Assembly: GCF_003991155.1 (NCBI RefSeq)
Contig: NZ_CP031293.1
From: Escherichia coli
Lineage (GTDB): Bacteria; Pseudomonadota; Gammaproteobacteria; Enterobacterales; Enterobacteriaceae
DNA length: 64,000 nucleotides
Direction: 5' to 3' (one strand)
The stretch's first letter is position 1, and each line of letters opens with the position of its first letter. Both the position numbers and the translations under genes were made by a program. Below, in pieces: positions 16,004 to 32,304 of the stretch. A model generated the notes under the pieces. It did no database searches and was not told the origin of the DNA. It worked only from the letters and a program-made list of their open reading frames with translations.

Positions 16004-17254
16004 ATGGAAAGTAAAGTAGTTGTTCCGGCACAAGGCAAGAAGATCACCCTGCAAAACGGCAAACTCAACGTTCCTGAAAATCCGATTATCCCTTACATTG
16101 AAGGTGATGGAATCGGTGTAGATGTAACCCCAGCCATGCTGAAAGTGGTCGACGCTGCAGTCGAGAAAGCCTATAAAGGCGAGCGTAAAATCTCCTGGAT
16201 GGAAATTTACACCGGTGAAAAATCCACACAGGTTTACGGTCAGGATGTCTGGCTGCCTGCTGAAACCCTTGATCTGATTCGTGAATATCGCGTTGCCATT
16301 AAAGGCCCGCTGACCACTCCGGTTGGTGGCGGTATTCGCTCTCTCAACGTTGCTCTGCGCCAGGAACTGGATCTCTACATCTGCCTGCGTCCGGTACGTT
16401 ACTATCAGGGCACTCCAAGCCCGGTTAAACACCCTGAACTGACCGATATGGTTATCTTCCGTGAAAACTCGGAAGACATTTATGCGGGTATCGAATGGAA
16501 AGCAGACTCTGCCGACGCTGAGAAAGTGATTAAATTCCTGCGTGAAGAGATGGGCGTGAAGAAAATTCGCTTCCCGGAACATTGCGGTATCGGTATTAAG
16601 CCGTGTTCTGAAGAAGGCACCAAACGTCTGGTTCGTGCAGCGATCGAATACGCAATTGCTAACGATCGTGACTCTGTGACCCTGGTGCACAAAGGCAACA
16701 TCATGAAGTTCACCGAAGGCGCGTTTAAAGACTGGGGCTACCAGCTGGCGCGTGAAGAGTTTGGCGGTGAACTGATCGACGGCGGCCCGTGGCTGAAAGT
16801 TAAAAACCCGAACACCGGCAAAGAGATCGTCATTAAAGACGTGATTGCTGACGCATTCCTGCAACAGATCCTGCTGCGTCCGGCTGAATATGATGTTATC
16901 GCCTGTATGAACCTGAACGGTGACTACATTTCTGACGCCCTGGCAGCACAGGTTGGCGGTATCGGTATCGCCCCTGGCGCAAACATCGGTGACGAATGCG
17001 CCCTGTTTGAAGCCACCCACGGTACTGCGCCGAAATATGCCGGTCAGGACAAAGTAAACCCAGGCTCTATTATTCTCTCCGCTGAGATGATGTTACGCCA
17101 TATGGGTTGGACTGAAGCCGCAGACCTGATTGTTAAAGGTATGGAAGGCGCGATCAACGCGAAGACTGTAACCTATGACTTCGAACGTCTGATGGAAGGC
17201 GCTAAACTGCTGAAATGTTCAGAGTTTGGTGATGCGATCATCAAGAATATGTAA
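16004..17254 (+). CDS. icd: isocitrate dehydrogenase (NADP)
   Basis: 416-aa ORF recognised as Icd; intact native 3' end. Confidence 0.95.
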
Positions 17255-17277
17255 TCACTACATGTGTTAAATATTGT

Positions 17278-17312
17278 AACGGGCGTATAACACGCCCGTT
17301 GTTTTATTTATG
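17278..17312 (+). terminator. icd rho-independent terminator
   Basis: hairpin aacgggcgtataacacgcccgtt followed by a T-rich run, 24 nt after the icd stop. Confidence 0.6.
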
Positions 17313-17356
17313 TGGATATTATTAATATCATGTCGAGAATATTTATATGAAGACCA

Positions 17357-17680
17357 TTACTTGAGCCCATATGGGCATATTTTTATAATGCAACTATTAT
17401 GCAAACATTTATTTGTTATTTTGCTTTCTCCTGGAGGACACTCTTGACTGCTTTTGAGTAAACTCCATAAATCCTTGTTGAATGGTGCGATGTTATAAAT
17501 AGTAATAGGATATTCTTTATCCTTAAGGATAATACCATACTTAACCGGTGTAAATATACTTCCAGGAGGGAGAAATATAGTAGATTGATACCAGATGATC
17601 ATTTTCATATCACCCCATATGGCTGAAAAAGATATGCCGCATGTAGGTTGAATTACCGTGTCAATTACTATCCACTTCAT
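17357..17680 (-). CDS. iraM: anti-adaptor protein IraM (RpoS stabiliser)
   Basis: 107-aa ORF recognised as IraM/YcgW; sits in very AT-rich DNA. Confidence 0.8.
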
Positions 17681-23007: not shown

Positions 23008-24531
23008 ATGCGCAATACACTCATACCCATCCTCGTTGCGATATGCTTGTTTATAACCGGTGTCGCTATTTTGAACATCCAGCTCTGGTATTCCGCAAAA
23101 GCAGAGTACCTGGCGGGAGCGAGATATGCCGCCAACAATATCAATCATATACTTGAAGAAGCGTCACAGGCGACTCAAACAGCGGTTAACATTGCCGGGA
23201 AGGAATGCGACCTCGAGGAGCAATATCAGCTTGGCACTGAAGCAGCTCTGAAACCTCACCTGCGCACAATCATCATTCTCAAACAGGGAACGGTCTGGTG
23301 TACATCCTTACCGGGGAATCGGGTCCTGCTGTCTCGTATTCCTGTTGTCCCGGACAGTAATTTACTGTTGGCTCCGGCAATCGACACCGTTAATAGATTA
23401 CCTATCCTGCTCTATCAGAGCCAATTTGCAGATACGCGCATTTTGGTTACGATAAGTGATCAGCATATTCGCGGGGCGCTTAATGTACCCTTGAAAGGGG
23501 TAAGGTATGTATTACGCGTGGCGGATGACATTATTGGACCTACGGGTGATGTGATGACGCTTAATGGACATTATCCCTATACCGAGAAGGTTCACTCCAC
23601 AAAATATCATTTCACTATTATCTTTAACCCGCCACCACTCTTTAGCTTCTACAGACTTATCGATAAAGGCTTTGGGATATTGATATTTATTCTGTTAATC
23701 GCCTGCGCCGCTGCTTTGCTGCTTGATAGGTATTTCAATAAAAGCGCAACGCCTGAAGAGATCCTGCGACGGGCTATAAATAATGGGGAGATCGTCCCTT
23801 TTTACCAACCTGTGGTAAATGGTCGGGAAGGGACATTGCGGGGAGTTGAGGTGTTAGCCCGCTGGAAACAACCTCACGGTGGATATATATCACCCGCGGC
23901 ATTTATTCCACTTGCTGAAAAATCCGGATTAATCGTTCCGCTTACGCAAAGCCTGATGAATCAGGTTGCCAGACAGATGAACGCTATCTCGAGTAAACTG
24001 CCGGAGGGTTTTCATATTGGAATTAATTTTAGCGCCTCGCATATTATTTCGCCGACGTTTGTCGACGAGTGCTTAAATTACCGTGACAGTTTTACCCGCC
24101 GCGATTTAAACCTCGTTCTGGAAGTCACCGAGCGTGAGCCATTAAATGTTGATGAAAGTCTGGTTCAGCGGTTGAACATTCTGCATGAAAATGGTTTTGT
24201 CATCGCGCTGGATGATTTCGGTACTGGCTACTCAGGGCTTTCTTATCTGCATGACCTGCATATTGATTATATCAAAATTGATCACAGTTTCGTTGGCCGC
24301 GTCAACGCAGACCCAGAATCAACCCGAATTCTGGATTGTGTATTGGATCTGGCGCGTAAACTTTCGATCAGTATCGTCGCTGAAGGTGTCGAAACGAAAG
24401 AACAACTTGATTATCTGAACCAAAATAATATCACATTTCAGCAGGGTTATTATTTCTATAAACCTGTTACATACATCGACCTGGTCAAAATTATCCTTTC
24501 TAAACCGAAGGTGAAGGTTGTGGTTGAGTGA
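23008..24531 (+). CDS. pdeG: CSS-motif EAL-domain c-di-GMP phosphodiesterase PdeG (YcgG)
   Basis: N-terminal TM/periplasmic CSS domain plus C-terminal EAL domain (EVLARW...DDFGTGYSGL); start taken at MRNTLIPI. Confidence 0.85.
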   Translation: MRNTLIPILVAICLFITGVAILNIQLWYSAKAEYLAGARYAANNINHILEEASQATQTAVNIAGKECDLEEQYQLGTEAALKPHLRTIIILKQGTVWCTSLPGNRVLLSRIPVVPDSNLLLAPAIDTVNRLPILLYQSQFADTRILVTISDQHIRGALNVPLKGVRYVLRVADDIIGPTGDVMTLNGHYPYTEKVHSTKYHFTIIFNPPPLFSFYRLIDKGFGILIFILLIACAAALLLDRYFNKSATPEEILRRAINNGEIVPFYQPVVNGREGTLRGVEVLARWKQPHGGYISPAAFIPLAEKSGLIVPLTQSLMNQVARQMNAISSKLPEGFHIGINFSASHIISPTFVDECLNYRDSFTRRDLNLVLEVTEREPLNVDESLVQRLNILHENGFVIALDDFGTGYSGLSYLHDLHIDYIKIDHSFVGRVNADPESTRILDCVLDLARKLSISIVAEGVETKEQLDYLNQNNITFQQGYYFYKPVTYIDLVKIILSKPKVKVVVE

Positions 24532-24662
24532 AAATTGATCAGCAAGGCCATGGTGCGGTGTAATTATAGACAGCTAATTAGCTCGTTGCCTCTTGTTACT
24601 ATTGTTCATTATTTTGTTTGCTATAATTGTTTGAAAGTTTTGACAGGATTGCCATTAGTAGC

Positions 24663-24881
24663 ATGAACAATAGTAATAATCTGGATTATTTCACTCTCTA
24701 TATCATCTTTTCCATTGCATTTATGCTGATCACTCTCCTGGTCATCCTTATTGCAAAACCCAGTACCGGGCTGGGAGAAGTGCTTGTGACGATAAATTTG
24801 CTTAATGCCCTTGTTTGGCTGGCGATCAATCTGGTTAATCGATTAAGGGAAAGACTCGTCAGCCACAGGGATCAGCACTAA
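24663..24881 (+). CDS. ymgF: small inner membrane protein YmgF
   Basis: 72-aa two-TM ORF (MNNSNNLDYF...). Confidence 0.7.
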   Translation: MNNSNNLDYFTLYIIFSIAFMLITLLVILIAKPSTGLGEVLVTINLLNALVWLAINLVNRLRERLVSHRDQH

Positions 24882-25280
24882 ACTTTCAGTTTCTCACTGT
24901 CAGTATGCGGCTGAATGGGTTGCTGGCAGTGAACGCCTGGGTCATTGAAGGAAAGGTATTATTGCGCAAATAGTTGTCAACCCTGGTGTTATCACAGTTG
25001 TTTTTATATATCATCGAAATAATTCCAATGGCAACTATTAATAATTTTGATGTCGAAGAGTTATTTGTTAAACAAATTCGTCACTCCAAAGTGATCAATG
25101 TCATGAAAATAAGGTGAAAAATGATAATGCTGACTTATTTATCATTTATGTATTGTCGCTGTTTATCTATTTAAATTTCTTGTGCTTTTGTTTTTGTCTT
25201 TACCCTCCGTTTTGGTAATCTGAACTCATAGGTTATTTGACCAGGAATGTTTGTTAATCCAATGAATGGATGGTTAATCT

Positions 25281-27929
25281 ATGAAACTGAAAAAACTCCC
25301 CGGGTTTAGTTTGGGACTTATTGCTTTGGCGGTGGGTAATGCATATGCTGAACAGTTTATTCAGTACGATGAATATAAACATGCTGTGGCAATAAAAGAT
25401 GGAGAAGTAAAAGATATTGATAATGCGCTAGTTATAACAACGGGTAATGGAAGTTACGGGGTATCTGTTGCAGGAGAGGGTAGCAATTTAACCATTAACA
25501 AAGGCGTCATTGTAACAACGGGTGGTTTATATCCTTCTGGCAATAGTCCTCTAAGCACAGTATATACAGCTAGCGCAGTCGTAAGTGAATATGGCGGTGC
25601 AGTTATTTTGCAGGGTAATAATACGATTGTCACAACGGGGGATTACTCAATTGGTTTGCTAAGTCAAACGAATGGAAACCTGAATACTGATACCATAATA
25701 AGAGTCAACACTGACGGTTCGGTTAACCCCCATTTATCTGACGAAGGTAATACTTTTATTGTTACTGCGGGTAATCACGCAGTCGGCGTTCTTGCTTGTG
25801 CATCTCCCGGAAGCGCGCGTGCGTGTGTATCTTCTCTTGATGAAGAAAGTACTGCCGATACAGGAAGTAATGAAAATAACGCCAAAGCAAAACTGGATAT
25901 GGCAAAAGGGGAGATAACAACCCACGGAACAGAAAGTTATGCCGCTTACGCTAATGGCACTGTCGTCAAGGCGGGTAGCAAGCTTGATTATACCAATGCC
26001 AGCGTTACATTAACCGATGTTGATATTACCACGCATGGGGACAATGCTCATGCCATCGCTGCTCGCCAGGGGACTGTTTCATTTAACCAGGGAGAAATTC
26101 ATACAACGGGTCCTGACGCCGCGATTGCTAAAATTTATAATGGCGGCAAGGTGACGCTGAAAAATACATCTGCAGTCGCGCATCAGGGGGCTGGAATTGT
26201 GCTGGAGTCTTCCATAAATGGTCAGGAAGCAACGGTAGATATTTTATCTGGTAGCTCACTACGGTCAGCAAATGAAATCCTCTACAATAAAAATGAGACG
26301 AGTAACGTGACCATTACGGATAGTGAGGTATCATCGGCTGCAGATGTTTTTATTAATAATATTAAAGGTCATTTGGCCATCGATGCATCTAATTCAAAAA
26401 TAACGGGTTCAGCCAATCTTTCAACAGATGATAGCACTCATACCTATCTGTCGCTTTCAGATAATAGTACCTGGGATATTAAAACTGACTCAACGGTGAG
26501 CAAGCTCACGGTTGACAATAGTACGGTCTATATTTCCCGGGCAGATGGAAAGGCTTTCGAACCAACAAGATTAACAATAACTGAAAATTACGTTGGTAAT
26601 AATGGCATATTGCATCTCAGAACTGAATTGGGTGATGATAATTCAGCTACGGATAAAGTCGTTATTAATGGAAATACCTCTGGAACAACCCGAGTTAAAG
26701 TTACCAATGCTGGCGGCAGCGGGGCTTACACGTTAAATGGGATAGAGATTATCAGCGTTGAGGGGGAATCAAATGGGGAATTTATTAAGGATTCGAGGAT
26801 TTTCGCCGGTGCCTACGAATATTCATTAACCCGAGGTAATACCGAAGCGACCAATAAAAACTGGTATCTGACTAACTTCCAGGCAACGAGCGGCGGTGAA
26901 ACAAACTCCGGAGGAAGTTCAGCGCCTACTGTTGCGCCTACCCCCGTTCTGCGCCCCGAAGCTGGAAGTTACGTCGCCAACCTGGCAGCCGCTAACACTC
27001 TTTTTGTTATGCGTCTGAACGATCGTGCAGGTGAAACGCGCTACATCGATCCTGTAACTGAACAGGAGCGTTCAAGCCGACTTTGGCTACGTCAAATTGG
27101 CGGGCATAATGCCTGGCGTGACAGCAACGGACAGTTGAGAACGACCTCGCATCGCTACGTCTCGCAGTTAGGGGCGGAGCTGTTAACCGGTGGTTTTACC
27201 GACAGTGACAGTTGGCGTTTGGGAGTGATGGCTGGTTATGCCCGCGACTACAACTCAACTCATTCCAGCGTGTCGGATTATCGTTCGAAAGGGAGTGTCA
27301 GAGGCTATAGCGCAGGGCTGTATGCCACCTGGTTTGCCGATGACATCAGTAAAAAAGGCGCATACATTGACGCCTGGGCGCAATATAGCTGGTTTAAAAA
27401 CTCGGTGAAAGGAGATGAATTAGCCTATGAATCCTATAGCGCGAAAGGTGCAACCGTCTCGCTGGAAGCGGGTTACGGTTTTGCCCTGAATAAATCCTTT
27501 GGTCTGGAAGCGGCGAAATATACGTGGATCTTCCAGCCACAGGCACAGGCTATCTGGATGGGCGTCGATCATAATGCGCACACGGAAGCCAATGGCTCAC
27601 GTATTGAGAATGACGCAAATAACAACTTCCAGACCCGACTTGGTTTCCGCACCTTTATTCGTACTCAGGAGAAAAACAGCGGTCCTCACGGTGACGACTT
27701 TGAACCTTTTGTTGAAATGAACTGGATCCATAACAGTAAAGATTTTGCTGTCTCAATGAATGGTGTGAAAGTCGAACAAGACGGGGCGCGTAATCTGGGG
27801 GAAATTAAACTTGGCGTAAATGGCAACCTGAATCCGGCGGCCAGTGTCTGGGGTAATGTGGGCGTGCAGCTGGGTGATAATGGCTACAATGACACCGCAG
27901 TGATGGTGGGCCTGAAATATAAGTTCTGA
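25281..27929 (+). CDS. ycgH: autotransporter (type Va) outer membrane protein, intact
   Basis: 882-aa ORF with signal peptide, repetitive Gly/Thr/Asn-rich passenger and C-terminal beta-barrel ending ...VGLKYKF. Confidence 0.8.
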   Translation: MKLKKLPGFSLGLIALAVGNAYAEQFIQYDEYKHAVAIKDGEVKDIDNALVITTGNGSYGVSVAGEGSNLTINKGVIVTTGGLYPSGNSPLSTVYTASAVVSEYGGAVILQGNNTIVTTGDYSIGLLSQTNGNLNTDTIIRVNTDGSVNPHLSDEGNTFIVTAGNHAVGVLACASPGSARACVSSLDEESTADTGSNENNAKAKLDMAKGEITTHGTESYAAYANGTVVKAGSKLDYTNASVTLTDVDITTHGDNAHAIAARQGTVSFNQGEIHTTGPDAAIAKIYNGGKVTLKNTSAVAHQGAGIVLESSINGQEATVDILSGSSLRSANEILYNKNETSNVTITDSEVSSAADVFINNIKGHLAIDASNSKITGSANLSTDDSTHTYLSLSDNSTWDIKTDSTVSKLTVDNSTVYISRADGKAFEPTRLTITENYVGNNGILHLRTELGDDNSATDKVVINGNTSGTTRVKVTNAGGSGAYTLNGIEIISVEGESNGEFIKDSRIFAGAYEYSLTRGNTEATNKNWYLTNFQATSGGETNSGGSSAPTVAPTPVLRPEAGSYVANLAAANTLFVMRLNDRAGETRYIDPVTEQERSSRLWLRQIGGHNAWRDSNGQLRTTSHRYVSQLGAELLTGGFTDSDSWRLGVMAGYARDYNSTHSSVSDYRSKGSVRGYSAGLYATWFADDISKKGAYIDAWAQYSWFKNSVKGDELAYESYSAKGATVSLEAGYGFALNKSFGLEAAKYTWIFQPQAQAIWMGVDHNAHTEANGSRIENDANNNFQTRLGFRTFIRTQEKNSGPHGDDFEPFVEMNWIHNSKDFAVSMNGVKVEQDGARNLGEIKLGVNGNLNPAASVWGNVGVQLGDNGYNDTAVMVGLKYKF

Positions 27930-27986
27930 TCCCGCCATTAGCTAAAAAACCGCGTCGATTTCATCGACGCGGTAACATATTAAATA

Positions 27987-28316
27987 TTATTTTTTGCCGA
28001 TAGTACGCATGGTGTCATCAATTGCCGTGATCAACAGCATTTGCGGGTCTTTAGCGCAAACCTGATTCAGTTTTTCTACCACTTTGGCGCTCAGTTCCGG
28101 AGATTGCTCAATTTTTAAATCACGGCTGGCAACGCTGGCATTACCCATTACCGCAACAATTTCTGCAACCTGTGCGCTGTCAGTTTTTGCCATTTCGTTG
28201 GCTTCTGCGCAAGTAATATAGGTTTCTGACGGCAAACCGTTTTTAATATTGTAGTCCTGCGCCCAGGTCATTGGTGCGAAAACAAACAGACCCGCCAGTA
28301 AAGCAAATTTTTTCAT
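27987..28316 (-). CDS. ymgD: periplasmic protein YmgD
   Basis: ~109-aa ORF with signal peptide. Confidence 0.75.
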   Translation of the reverse strand: MKKFALLAGLFVFAPMTWAQDYNIKNGLPSETYITCAEANEMAKTDSAQVAEIVAVMGNASVASRDLKIEQSPELSAKVVEKLNQVCAKDPQMLLITAIDDTMRTIGKK

Positions 28317-28325
28317 CATCATTCC

Positions 28326-28670
28326 TTATTTCATTTTACCCAGAATTGCACCACCCGTACCGCCAATCACGGCACCTTTAATCGCCCCTTCGAGGCCATT
28401 TCCGGTCAGAACGCCAGTGACAGCACCAACGGCGGCACCCACTTTTGCACCTTTACGCGCATTTTTACCGTCGCGGCCTTTTTCTGTTACTGCACCAACA
28501 CCAGCGCCAACAGCTGCACCTTTCAGTACGCCATTAACACCATTGCCAGTAAGTAAACCAACGCCTGCGCCTAGCAATGCACCTTTCGTGGTGCGATTCA
28601 TATCCGCCATCGCTGGCGTGGAGCAGAACAATGCTGAGATAAGCCCGAAGGCAAGTATTTTTTTCTTCAA
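28326..28670 (-). CDS. ymgG: glycine-zipper family protein YmgG
   Basis: 114-aa ORF with signal peptide and repeated GxxxG/GAxVG motifs. Confidence 0.75.
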
Positions 28671-29146
28671 CTTAGATGTCCGGTATTAAGTAAGTTGCAC
28701 ACACAATAATTTCGTCTTCAATTAAGATCGGCTTAACTAAAGAACGCTCGCTATTATTCAGATAATTCAAAATGAGCGTGACTGTGATGATAGGAATTAT
28801 GTTTTTTACGGGAATAAGAATAATCTCAAATGAGAAATAACTCATTGATTGACAATATTTTTATTCAAGAAGTGTCATTGAGTGTTAATACAATGTTGTA
28901 AAGGTAAGATAATCTGATTTATGAATATTATTGTGTGATTTTTATGTGAGCAGAAAATATTCATCAGCAATGATTACATTAGTCATTTTATTTTGTCGAC
29001 GGCCTCATTGTCGAAAAATAAGCGTACAACAGTATTATCAGAAAAGAGTGATTTTTTATCCAACTACACTTCAGCGCACTGCGTTTAAAAAATGCCTCTT
29101 TCTTATGCGGGATATCATTATTTCATCATGATGTCTTTGGTGAGCG

Positions 29147-29529
29147 GTGAACACAATACACTTGCGCTGTCTCTTCAGGAGCAATCCCCTGGTCTGGTGC
29201 CTGCGGGCTGATGTTGCAGCAGAGCTAAGGTCGCTTAGACGCTACTATCATTTATCCAATGGCATGGAATCGAAATTAGTCGATACCCGCAGTATATATC
29301 GTGAACTGGGCGCAACGCTGAGTTACAACATGCGTCTGGGGAACGGCATGGAAGTTGAGCCGTGGCTGAAGGTGGCTGTGCGCAAAGAATTTGTCGATGA
29401 TAACCGGGTGAAAGTGAATAATGACGGTAATTTTGTCAATAATTTGTCGGGCAGACGTGGAATATATCAGGCAGGTATTAAAGCCTCATTCAGCAGTTCG
29501 TTAAGCGGGCATCTCGGGGTGGGGTATAG
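29147..29529 (+). pseudogene. ycgI: autotransporter beta-barrel C-terminal remnant (ycgI-like), 3' end interrupted by IS
   Basis: ORF encodes only a beta-domain fragment with no passenger; reading across the IS reconstitutes ...GVGYSHGAGVESPWNAVAGANWSF*, a typical autotransporter C-terminus. Confidence 0.55.
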
Positions 29530-29537
29530 TGTAGTGG

Positions 29538-30787
<1,250 letters not shown>

Positions 30788-30866
30788 TAGCCATGGTGCC
30801 GGTGTGGAATCCCCGTGGAACGCGGTGGCTGGTGCGAACTGGTCGTTCTGACCATCAACGATTAAA

Positions 30867-30891
30867 CTGCGCTTCGGCGCAGTTTTCGTTT
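30867..30891 (+). terminator. rho-independent terminator downstream of the autotransporter remnant
   Basis: ctgcgcttcggcgcag hairpin followed by ttttcgttt. Confidence 0.5.
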
Positions 30892-31221
30892 ACAGGGTGT
30901 TAAAAGGGAAAATTCTGCGGCAAAAAAAGCCCGCCAGTTACGGCGGGAAACCTCATCCTATGGGAGAACAATGAATAATGAAATTGCGGGGTTATCATCT
31001 CCCAGTATACCAATACTAACAATAAGGTTATTTACTCAGCCAGGTATAAACATTTTGTTCTGTGTGGGGGGAACGGCATTAAGGTGTAAAGGGGGGGGGG
31101 GGAAGCAATGAGTAGCATCAGCAAGAATACTCGCCGCTCTTATCAAACGTGGATGAGGGGGATGAAAAACTCAAGGCAGAGATGACTCTGCCTTGAAGAT
31201 AAATGCGCTTTTACAGCGGGC

Positions 31222-31488
31222 TTATTTCAGCTCTTCTGCTTCCGGCAAGGTCACGTTGAGCTCAAGAATAGAAATATCGCCATCTTTTTGCTCAAGCTGT
31301 ACGGTTACCATCTCAGGATCAATTTGTACGTATTTACAAATGACCTCAAGAATATCTTTACGCAACTGCGGCAGATAATGCGGTTCTGCATCGCTGCGAC
31401 GGCGTTCAGCAACAATAATCTGCAGCCGTTCTTTTGCAATGTTGGCCGTGTTTTTCTTCCGCGAGAGAAAGAAATCGAGTAATGCCAT
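31222..31488 (-). CDS. minE: cell division topological specificity factor MinE
   Basis: 88-aa ORF recognised as MinE. Confidence 0.95.
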
Positions 31489-31491
31489 AAC

Positions 31492-32304
31492 TTATCCTCC
31501 GAACAAGCGTTTGAGGAAGCCTTTCTTCTCTTCTTCAATGAAGCGGAAAGGACGTTCTTCTCCCAACAGACGTTCTACGGTATCTGCGTAGGCTTTACCC
31601 GCATCGGCGTTAATGTCGAGAATGACCGGTTCACCCTGGTTAGAGGCGCGCAATACTGATTGATCCTCAGGGATCACACCGACGAGTTTGATGCGCAGGA
31701 TCTCCAGCACATCTTCCATGCTCAGCATGTCACCTCTGCTTACGCGGCCTGGGTTATAGCGCGTTAACAGCAGGTGCTCTTTAATAGGCTCTTCGCCATT
31801 TTCTGCGCGGCGTGATTTCGACGCCAGAATGCCTAAAATACGGTCAGAGTCGCGTACTGAGGAGACTTCCGGGTTGGTGGTAATAATGGCTTCGTCTGCA
31901 AAATAGAGTGCCATTAGCGCACCGGTCTCAATCCCTGCCGGGGAGTCGCAAACAATAAATTCAAAGTCCATCGCTTTCAGATCATCAAGAACTTTGGCGA
32001 CCCCTTCACGGGTGAGGGCATCTTTATCGCGAGTTTGCGATGCCGGAAGAATATAGAGATTTTCAGTACGCTTATCTTTAATTAACGCCTGATTTAGCGT
32101 TGCATCGCCCTGAATGACGTTGACGAAATCGTAAACGACCCGACGTTCACAACCCATAATCAGGTCGAGATTACGCAGGCCGATATCAAAATCTATCACG
32201 ACAGTTTTCTTTCCCTTCTGGGCCAAACCAGTGGCGATGGCCGCGCTGGAGGTTGTCTTACCAACACCCCCTTTGCCCGAAGTAACAACAATAATGCGTG
32301 CCAT
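31492..32304 (-). CDS. minD: septum site-determining ATPase MinD
   Basis: 270-aa ORF with deviant Walker A GKGGVGKTT. Confidence 0.95.
   Translation of the reverse strand: MARIIVVTSGKGGVGKTTSSAAIATGLAQKGKKTVVIDFDIGLRNLDLIMGCERRVVYDFVNVIQGDATLNQALIKDKRTENLYILPASQTRDKDALTREGVAKVLDDLKAMDFEFIVCDSPAGIETGALMALYFADEAIITTNPEVSSVRDSDRILGILASKSRRAENGEEPIKEHLLLTRYNPGRVSRGDMLSMEDVLEILRIKLVGVIPEDQSVLRASNQGEPVILDINADAGKAYADTVERLLGEERPFRFIEEEKKGFLKRLFGG

Follow-up and report, generated by a model that had tools for sequence, protein, structure and literature searches.

Classical (type Va) autotransporters are by default expected to act as adhesins or in biofilm formation and aggregation. Among them, the self-associating autotransporters carry imperfect passenger repeats of about 19 residues, and AIDA-I and TibA are each accompanied by a dedicated adjacent heptosyltransferase gene. 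At the ycgH locus of Escherichia coli, the annotation of K-12 MG1655 gives a pseudogene ('frameshifted; internal stop'), as an earlier note on the DNA analyzed here had stated. In the searchable literature no function was found for ycgH; the papers that were opened or judged by title use this K-12 pseudogene as an integration site or mention it in tables. A further autotransporter gene, ECIAI39_1904, was listed among the genes of the Virulence Factor Database in a 2017 paper, in which it is reported to be present in ST38, ST405 and ST648 but missing from ST131 (PMC5654935); an experimental characterization of it was not found in the searchable literature. In the present study, the gene at positions 25281 to 27929 of a 64,000-nucleotide stretch of E. 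coli DNA (contig NZ_CP031293.1 of assembly GCF_003991155.1; hereafter the window) was compared with these systems. Based on its reading frame, its alleles and its predicted structure, it is very probably an intact classical autotransporter gene of the ECIAI39_1904 type at the ycgH locus, whose product would likely act as a surface adhesin.

The plus strand of this region comprises a single open reading frame (ORF) of 882 codons with an ATG start and no internal stop, as seen from the ORF list and the translation, and the opposite strand shows stop codons throughout. The probability of 882 stop-free codons arising by chance is about 4e-19. An overlooked frameshift and an artefact of the assembly can both be excluded, since at least 25 complete E. 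coli genomes, assembled independently of each other, match the 8 kb around the gene (24000-32000) at 100.0%. Moreover, a stretch of 26.6 kb is 99.98% identical to strain 2016C-3878. RefSeq calls the gene an intact coding sequence (CDS), WP_000768535.1, to which the DNA of the ORF is 100% identical. The same protein is annotated at the corresponding position in the strains 2016C-3878 and FDAARGOS_1268, both of which match the window at 99.98-100%. Altogether, the uninterrupted ORF described in the earlier note was confirmed, and no internal frameshift was found in it.

By its sequence identity, the gene is the allele that RefSeq names 'ECIAI39_1904 family autotransporter adhesin' and is already known. 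The scan of the window protein against NCBIfam returned no hidden Markov model of the name ECIAI39_1904, and the naming is therefore apparently based on identity of the sequence. K-12-type proteins carry a different RefSeq product name, 'autotransporter YcgH'.

The gene is located between ymgF and ymgD, which is the site of ycgH in K-12, and this gene order is shared by K-12 and the strains identical to the window. The MG1655-like locus used in the comparison does not differ in sequence from the annotated ycgH of MG1655. Intact YcgH of the K-12 type is found in other strains (WP_000768545.1 and WP_001522908.1), and compared to the first of these (882 aa) K-12 ycgH shows three differences only: a substitution at codon 348, a C>T exchange that turns codon 507 into a stop and the loss of one nucleotide at nt 2570. 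The last two are inactivating lesions, so that the K-12 gene is not intact as well.

A comparison of the window protein with K-12-type YcgH showed an identical signal peptide (23/23 aa, 100%) and an almost identical C-terminal part, with 324 of 331 residues (97.9%) shared over aa 552-882. The passenger of 528 aa between them (aa 24-551) shares 39.5% identity at the protein level and requires several indels. The same is reflected by the DNA of the two genes, for which the identity is high over the first 68 nt, about 50% from nt 69 to 1654 and 97-100% from about nt 1655 on; megablast aligns just 40% of the window gene to K-12. One boundary thus coincides with the cleavage site of the signal peptide, and the other is located near codon 552. 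In terms of this alignment the locus is a mosaic: the upstream region, the signal peptide and the translocator are common to both types, and between them stands one of two passengers that have diverged deeply.

These data bear directly on the interpretation implied by the earlier note, namely that the window gene represents the ancestral, unbroken form of K-12 ycgH_1/ycgH_2. The shared locus, the identical signal peptide, the 98% identity of the C-terminal third and an upstream region that is 96% identical would all be expected from such a relation. They are, however, opposed by the indels and the low identity of the passenger, by the alignment of only 40% of the gene, by the different RefSeq names and by the existence of true intact K-12-type alleles only three positions away from K-12, and the ancestral form is hardly tenable as an explanation. 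For the passenger itself, an unbroken K-12 version is refuted by the identities of about 50% (DNA) and 39.5% (protein). The alignment shows the window gene to be not K-12 ycgH minus its lesions, but a different, already catalogued allele. The statement that ycgH is intact in this strain is therefore valid as far as a whole autotransporter ORF occupies the ycgH locus, but it does not apply to the allele found in K-12.

The coordinates of the ORF, its predicted domains and the surrounding features are compiled in Table 1.

Table 1. Features of the autotransporter locus and its surroundings (positions in the window; aa, amino acids of the 882-aa protein).
Feature	Position	Strand	Basis
ymgF-ycgH intergenic region with weak Shine-Dalgarno-like GGATGG 7 nt 5' of the ATG	24882..25280	+	Sequence reading
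Full autotransporter CDS at the ycgH locus, allele of the ECIAI39_1904 type (882 aa and stop codon)	25281..27929	+	100% identical to WP_000768535.1
Signal peptide, aa 1-23, MKLKKLPGFSLGLIALAVGNAYA, standard Sec type	25281..25349	+	Read from translation; 23/23 identical to K-12-type YcgH
Passenger domain, aa 24-551, all-beta, beta-helix-like, allele-specific segment	25350..26933	+	AlphaFold2, Foldseek, identity comparison
GGGG run, gene nt 178-181, intact here; site of a 1-nt deletion in most carrier strains	25458..25461	+	Allele comparison
Autochaperone domain, aa 404-516, C-terminal end of passenger	26490..26828	+	Pfam PF18883 AC_1, E=3.6e-30
Linker alpha-helix, aa 559-573	26955..26999	+	DSSP helix in model; within region aligned to 4MEE
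12-stranded outer-membrane beta-barrel (translocator), aa 600-881, C-terminal motif ...YKF	27078..27923	+	Pfam PF03797, model, Foldseek
GC-rich hairpin, perfect 11-bp stem, separating the autotransporter gene from the convergent ymgD	27949..27973	.	Terminator-like
ycgI remnant, C-terminal fragment of autotransporter beta-domain	29246..29545	+	RefSeq partial pseudogene; Pfam PF03797 profile positions 154-254, E=6.9e-11
Insertion sequence of the IS3 family, about 1257 bp, inside the ycgI remnant	29530..30786	-	K-12 collinearity; annotated transposase with programmed frameshift

Inspection of the N-terminus showed the features of a signal peptide, in which an n-region of positive charge (KLKK) precedes a hydrophobic core and the sequence AYA stands directly before a glutamate. 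This AXA site stands at the end of MKLKKLPGFSLGLIALAVGNAYA and is followed by EQ, from which a cleavage after aa 23 would be expected. The signal peptide comprises no extended region of the kind known from some large autotransporters. In the AlphaFold2 model, which was calculated from an alignment of 55 diverse homologues taken from the whole-library search, this region showed a low predicted local distance difference test (pLDDT) score and a short helix at aa 11-17. The whole model reached a mean pLDDT of 86.7 and a predicted template modelling score of 0.79. The family is large, with 3259 representatives at E<=0.001 in the whole-library search.

For the passenger, the model comprises short beta strands across aa 34-531 with pLDDT values mostly above 90. 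Its C-terminal end contains the autochaperone domain, which by sequence matched both 3ML3, the autochaperone of IcsA, and 5KE1 and in Foldseek matched 3ML3 with a TMt of 0.72, and it overlaps with a Pfam Pertactin domain at aa 406-531. Further Foldseek matches of the passenger were pertactin (1DAB), UpaB (6BEA), Ag43 (7KOH) and IcsA (5KE1). The C-terminal part matched the Pfam Autotransporter beta-domain (PF03797) at aa 601-860 with E=2.7e-40 and the NCBIfam autotransporter barrel TIGR01414 with E=2.3e-110. In the model it forms 12 long antiparallel strands over aa 600-881, and the linker helix is predicted to occupy the barrel pore. A comparison with the PDB by Foldseek placed the barrel on the AIDA-I transport unit 4MEE (TMt 0.95, root-mean-square deviation (rmsd) 1.9 A), which is also the nearest solved structure by sequence (aa 431-882, E=6e-83), followed by the IcsA autochaperone fragments. 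The GC content was 43% for the passenger and 51% for the barrel part, compared to 48.5% for the window.

The combination of a signal peptide seen by inspection, a PF03797 barrel with 12 strands and a pore helix in the model, and a beta-helical passenger with an autochaperone is that of the classical type Va autotransporters. From the earlier description of the protein as a signal peptide, a repetitive passenger and a complete beta-barrel, the first and the last part as well as an all-beta passenger were recovered, but the repeats were not. Tandem Repeats Finder detected no tandem repeats in the passenger DNA, and an autocorrelation of the passenger based on BLOSUM62 over lags 1-119 gave no significant periodicity, with a peak of z=2.5 and z=1.6 at lag 18. 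The term 'repetitive' holds only loosely, in the sense of the rungs of a beta-helix. Neither a GDSGS protease motif nor an RGD motif was found in the window protein.

Since the AIDA-I transport unit is the closest structure by both sequence and fold, it could be assumed that the window gene encodes a self-associating autotransporter of the AIDA-I, TibA or Ag43 kind, which causes cell-cell aggregation via a repeat-rich, glycosylated passenger. The NCBIfam model auto_AIDA-I indeed matched aa 430-882 with 317.8 bits, and Ag43 is among the fold matches of the passenger. However, the cut-off of this model is 1200 bits and the AIDA-I match is limited to the autochaperone and the barrel. Furthermore, a periodicity of 19 residues or a tandem repeat is missing from the passenger and no heptosyltransferase gene is adjacent, the neighbours being pdeG, ymgF, ymgD and ymgG, which makes a self-associating protein of this kind very unlikely. 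The NCBIfam equivalogs MisL, ShdA, YfaL/EhaC, AIDA-I and ECSE_1600 were all rejected, as they scored far below their cut-offs and covered the C-terminal part only. A membership in the serine protease autotransporters of Enterobacteriaceae was rejected as well, based on the absence of the GDSGS motif and of any Pfam peptidase domain.

For a classical autotransporter gene of the ECIAI39_1904 type, the following sequence of events can be proposed, in which the steps are drawn from the established knowledge of type Va secretion and the parts and the fold from the present analysis. The 23-aa signal peptide would send the protein through Sec, and the beta-barrel assembly machinery (BAM) would insert the C-terminal 12-stranded barrel into the outer membrane. 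Subsequently, the passenger would be threaded outward with its C-terminus first, while the linker helix would stay in the pore, and folding of the autochaperone would nucleate the beta-helix of about 500 aa on the cell surface. This surface-exposed beta-helix would most likely represent an adhesin, or otherwise a factor of biofilm formation or aggregation. For the window protein, we infer expression, surface display and adhesive function from these considerations.

A number of observations on the population, the selection and the surroundings of the gene weigh against a function of this kind. Among 5426 complete E. coli genomes, some match to the window gene was present in 5088, and the window passenger type was present in 1786. 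An exact 45-mer spanning a deletion of one nucleotide at the GGGG run was found in 1404 of these 1786 carriers; this deletion splits the ORF into pieces of 69 aa and 773 aa. The window's own 45-mer at this run was found in 160 genomes, so that open copies are still well represented. Since 1404 of the 1786 carriers show the deletion signature and others comprise nonsense codons, uninterrupted genes of the ECIAI39_1904 type are a minority state, amounting to at most about 380 genomes (about 7%). Six differently diverged alleles bearing the ECIAI39_1904 family name were compared over their full length. Four of them are intact (the window allele, L007, L009 and L011), whereas two are pseudogenes, in which codons 12 and 25 or codon 602, respectively, are stops. 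The frameshift in most carriers, together with the nonsense codons in two of the six alleles, indicates that most lineages can do without the gene.

The K-12 type is affected in a similar manner, as an allele with two internal deletions (about 725 bp and 393 bp) accounted for about one fifth of the matching records when these were sampled at even spacing. Inactivation at the ycgH locus thus occurred in at least five independent kinds across strains, namely the two K-12 lesions described above (codon 507 and nt 2570), the deletion at nt 178, the stops at codons 12 and 25, the stop at codon 602 and the two internal deletions. Judging from these alleles, one or the other passenger type is inactivated in most E. 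coli lineages. The GGGG run was also considered as a phase-variation switch, but four bases are too short for this purpose, some intact alleles read GGTG and the deleted form is located on one diverged allele background (about 96% identical). The deletion is most simply regarded as one inherited lesion.

As a separate observation, the allele L011 (1122-3800, strain CE0032f) encodes a variant of 892 aa with an insertion of ten residues, GEVKGGEVKY, after aa 45. It looks as if the GEVK motif had been duplicated locally in the first part of the passenger.

The ratio of nonsynonymous to synonymous substitutions (dN/dS), estimated according to Nei and Gojobori among the alleles of the ECIAI39_1904 type, was 0.04-0.20 for the C-terminal part, which corresponds to a strong purifying selection on the translocator. 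The passenger showed values of 0.34-0.92, and of 0.47-0.92 if only the intact alleles were compared, which is close to neutral. The passenger would accordingly be subject either to a weak constraint or to diversifying selection. Its frame has been kept open in four alleles differing by 44-66 passenger substitutions. Under neutrality 1.6-2.4 stops would be expected per allele pair, corresponding to a probability of about 0.09-0.20 for a stop-free pair, and because of this low expectation the open frames are a weak argument for function.

The intergenic region upstream of the gene, which is presumed to act as promoter or regulatory region, comprises 34% GC compared to 48.5% for the window and is 96% identical to the upstream region of K-12. 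A consensus scan of its plus strand gave no match to the sigma-70 consensus. An AT-rich upstream region of this kind, lacking a match to the consensus, would fit a gene that is silent or under tight repression. Finally, neither expression nor phenotype data were found in the searchable literature for the window gene or for YcgH.

Several of these findings can also be explained by an ORF that is whole yet silent or no longer useful and that drifts to the pseudogene state of most lineages. The passenger dN/dS of the intact alleles, the five or more independent kinds of inactivation with the deletion signature in 1404 genomes, and the AT-rich upstream region would all be in line with it. Against such a cryptic gene stands the strong constraint on the translocator half (dN/dS of about 0.1); moreover, several diverged alleles retain the full frame, and a high dN/dS is equally predicted by diversifying selection on a surface-exposed passenger. 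An intact but cryptic gene is therefore considered possible, though not likely, and an intact autotransporter gene encoding a surface adhesin is retained as the interpretation of the locus. A more far-reaching idea would be that the two ancient passenger types are kept by balancing or niche-specific selection and are repeatedly lost elsewhere. In that case the near-neutral dN/dS would be due to diversifying selection instead of decay, and the intact ECIAI39_1904 type would have its own receptor specificity and play a part in the ecology of those lineages in which it is kept, such as ST38, ST405 and ST648. We regard this idea as doubtful at present.

Upstream of the autotransporter gene, the genes ycgZ-ymgA-ariR-ymgC and pdeG are located together with ymgF, and ymgD and ymgG are located downstream. 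For the hairpin between the autotransporter gene and ymgD, the stem is directly followed by a T-run on the minus strand, which is that of ymgD, and the T-run on the plus strand is not adjacent. Because the adjacent T-run is on the side of ymgD only, the hairpin is probably the terminator of ymgD, and for the autotransporter transcript it may act as a weak terminator at best. With regard to K-12, a table from sigmaS chromatin immunoprecipitation sequencing lists a peak at 1219400-1219949 with the label ycgH 'pseudogene- autotransporter' (PMC4447067). This peak lies inside the K-12 ycgH coding sequence and not upstream of it, at a place where the passenger DNA of the window differs.

Downstream of the gene, the earlier note had described a decayed ycgI-like paralogue disrupted by an insertion sequence (IS). 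The interrupted remnant and an element of the IS3 family were both found, but a close relationship to the window protein was not: a BLASTP comparison gave no significant similarity (E=0.32). The assumption of a close paralogue was therefore rejected, with the Pfam beta-domain family as the only common feature. K-12 is collinear with the window up to 29529 and again from 30787, with an overlap of 3-4 bp that suggests a target-site duplication.

Two further observations concern more distant parts of the window. Between dadX and cvrA, on the minus strand at about 47079-48515, a 'hypothetical protein' of 478 aa (WP_000135820.1) is encoded, which showed a weak match to the leucine-rich-repeat family PF12799 (E=6e-7); its gene is presumably not part of the K-12 gene order at this place. 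In addition, icd is directly followed by iraM, with about 100 bp between them (about 17254-17357). In K-12 the icd-iraM region is interrupted by the e14 prophage, which appears to be absent here.

As to the use of these results, the name 'ycgH' covers two quite different surface proteins outside K-12, and screens for virulence genes should separate the passenger type as well as the intactness of the gene. The locus provides a clear example of the recurrent pseudogenization of a surface adhesin gene. No function has been published for either of the passenger types, and strains with an intact copy are the place to test for one. Beyond careful annotation the finding matters little: it was correct in outline and is an ordinary one.

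Compared to the known systems, the relation to the solved autotransporters is closest at the C-terminus. The window protein shares with AIDA-I (4MEE) the autochaperone, the linker helix and the 12-stranded barrel, at the E-value and TMt given above, but differs from it by the absence of the passenger repeats and of an adjoining glycosyltransferase gene. In the case of pertactin, UpaB and Ag43, the predicted all-beta solenoid of the passenger aligns to 1DAB, 6BEA and 7KOH and the Pertactin domain at aa 406-531 is shared; the identity is just 13-15% with a high rmsd over long alignments, and the ligand specificity is thus not transferable. With the ECIAI39_1904 family autotransporter adhesin (WP_000768535.1) the protein is identical and nothing differs. 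YcgH of the K-12 type is alike in the chromosomal site, the upstream region, the signal peptide, the linker and barrel (98% of the amino acids) and the length of 882 aa, but unlike in the passenger, which with 39.5% identity and multiple indels does not qualify as orthologous. From this comparison, the YcgH and ECIAI39_1904 types are best seen as alternative passenger alleles of one locus, and not as its intact and broken states.

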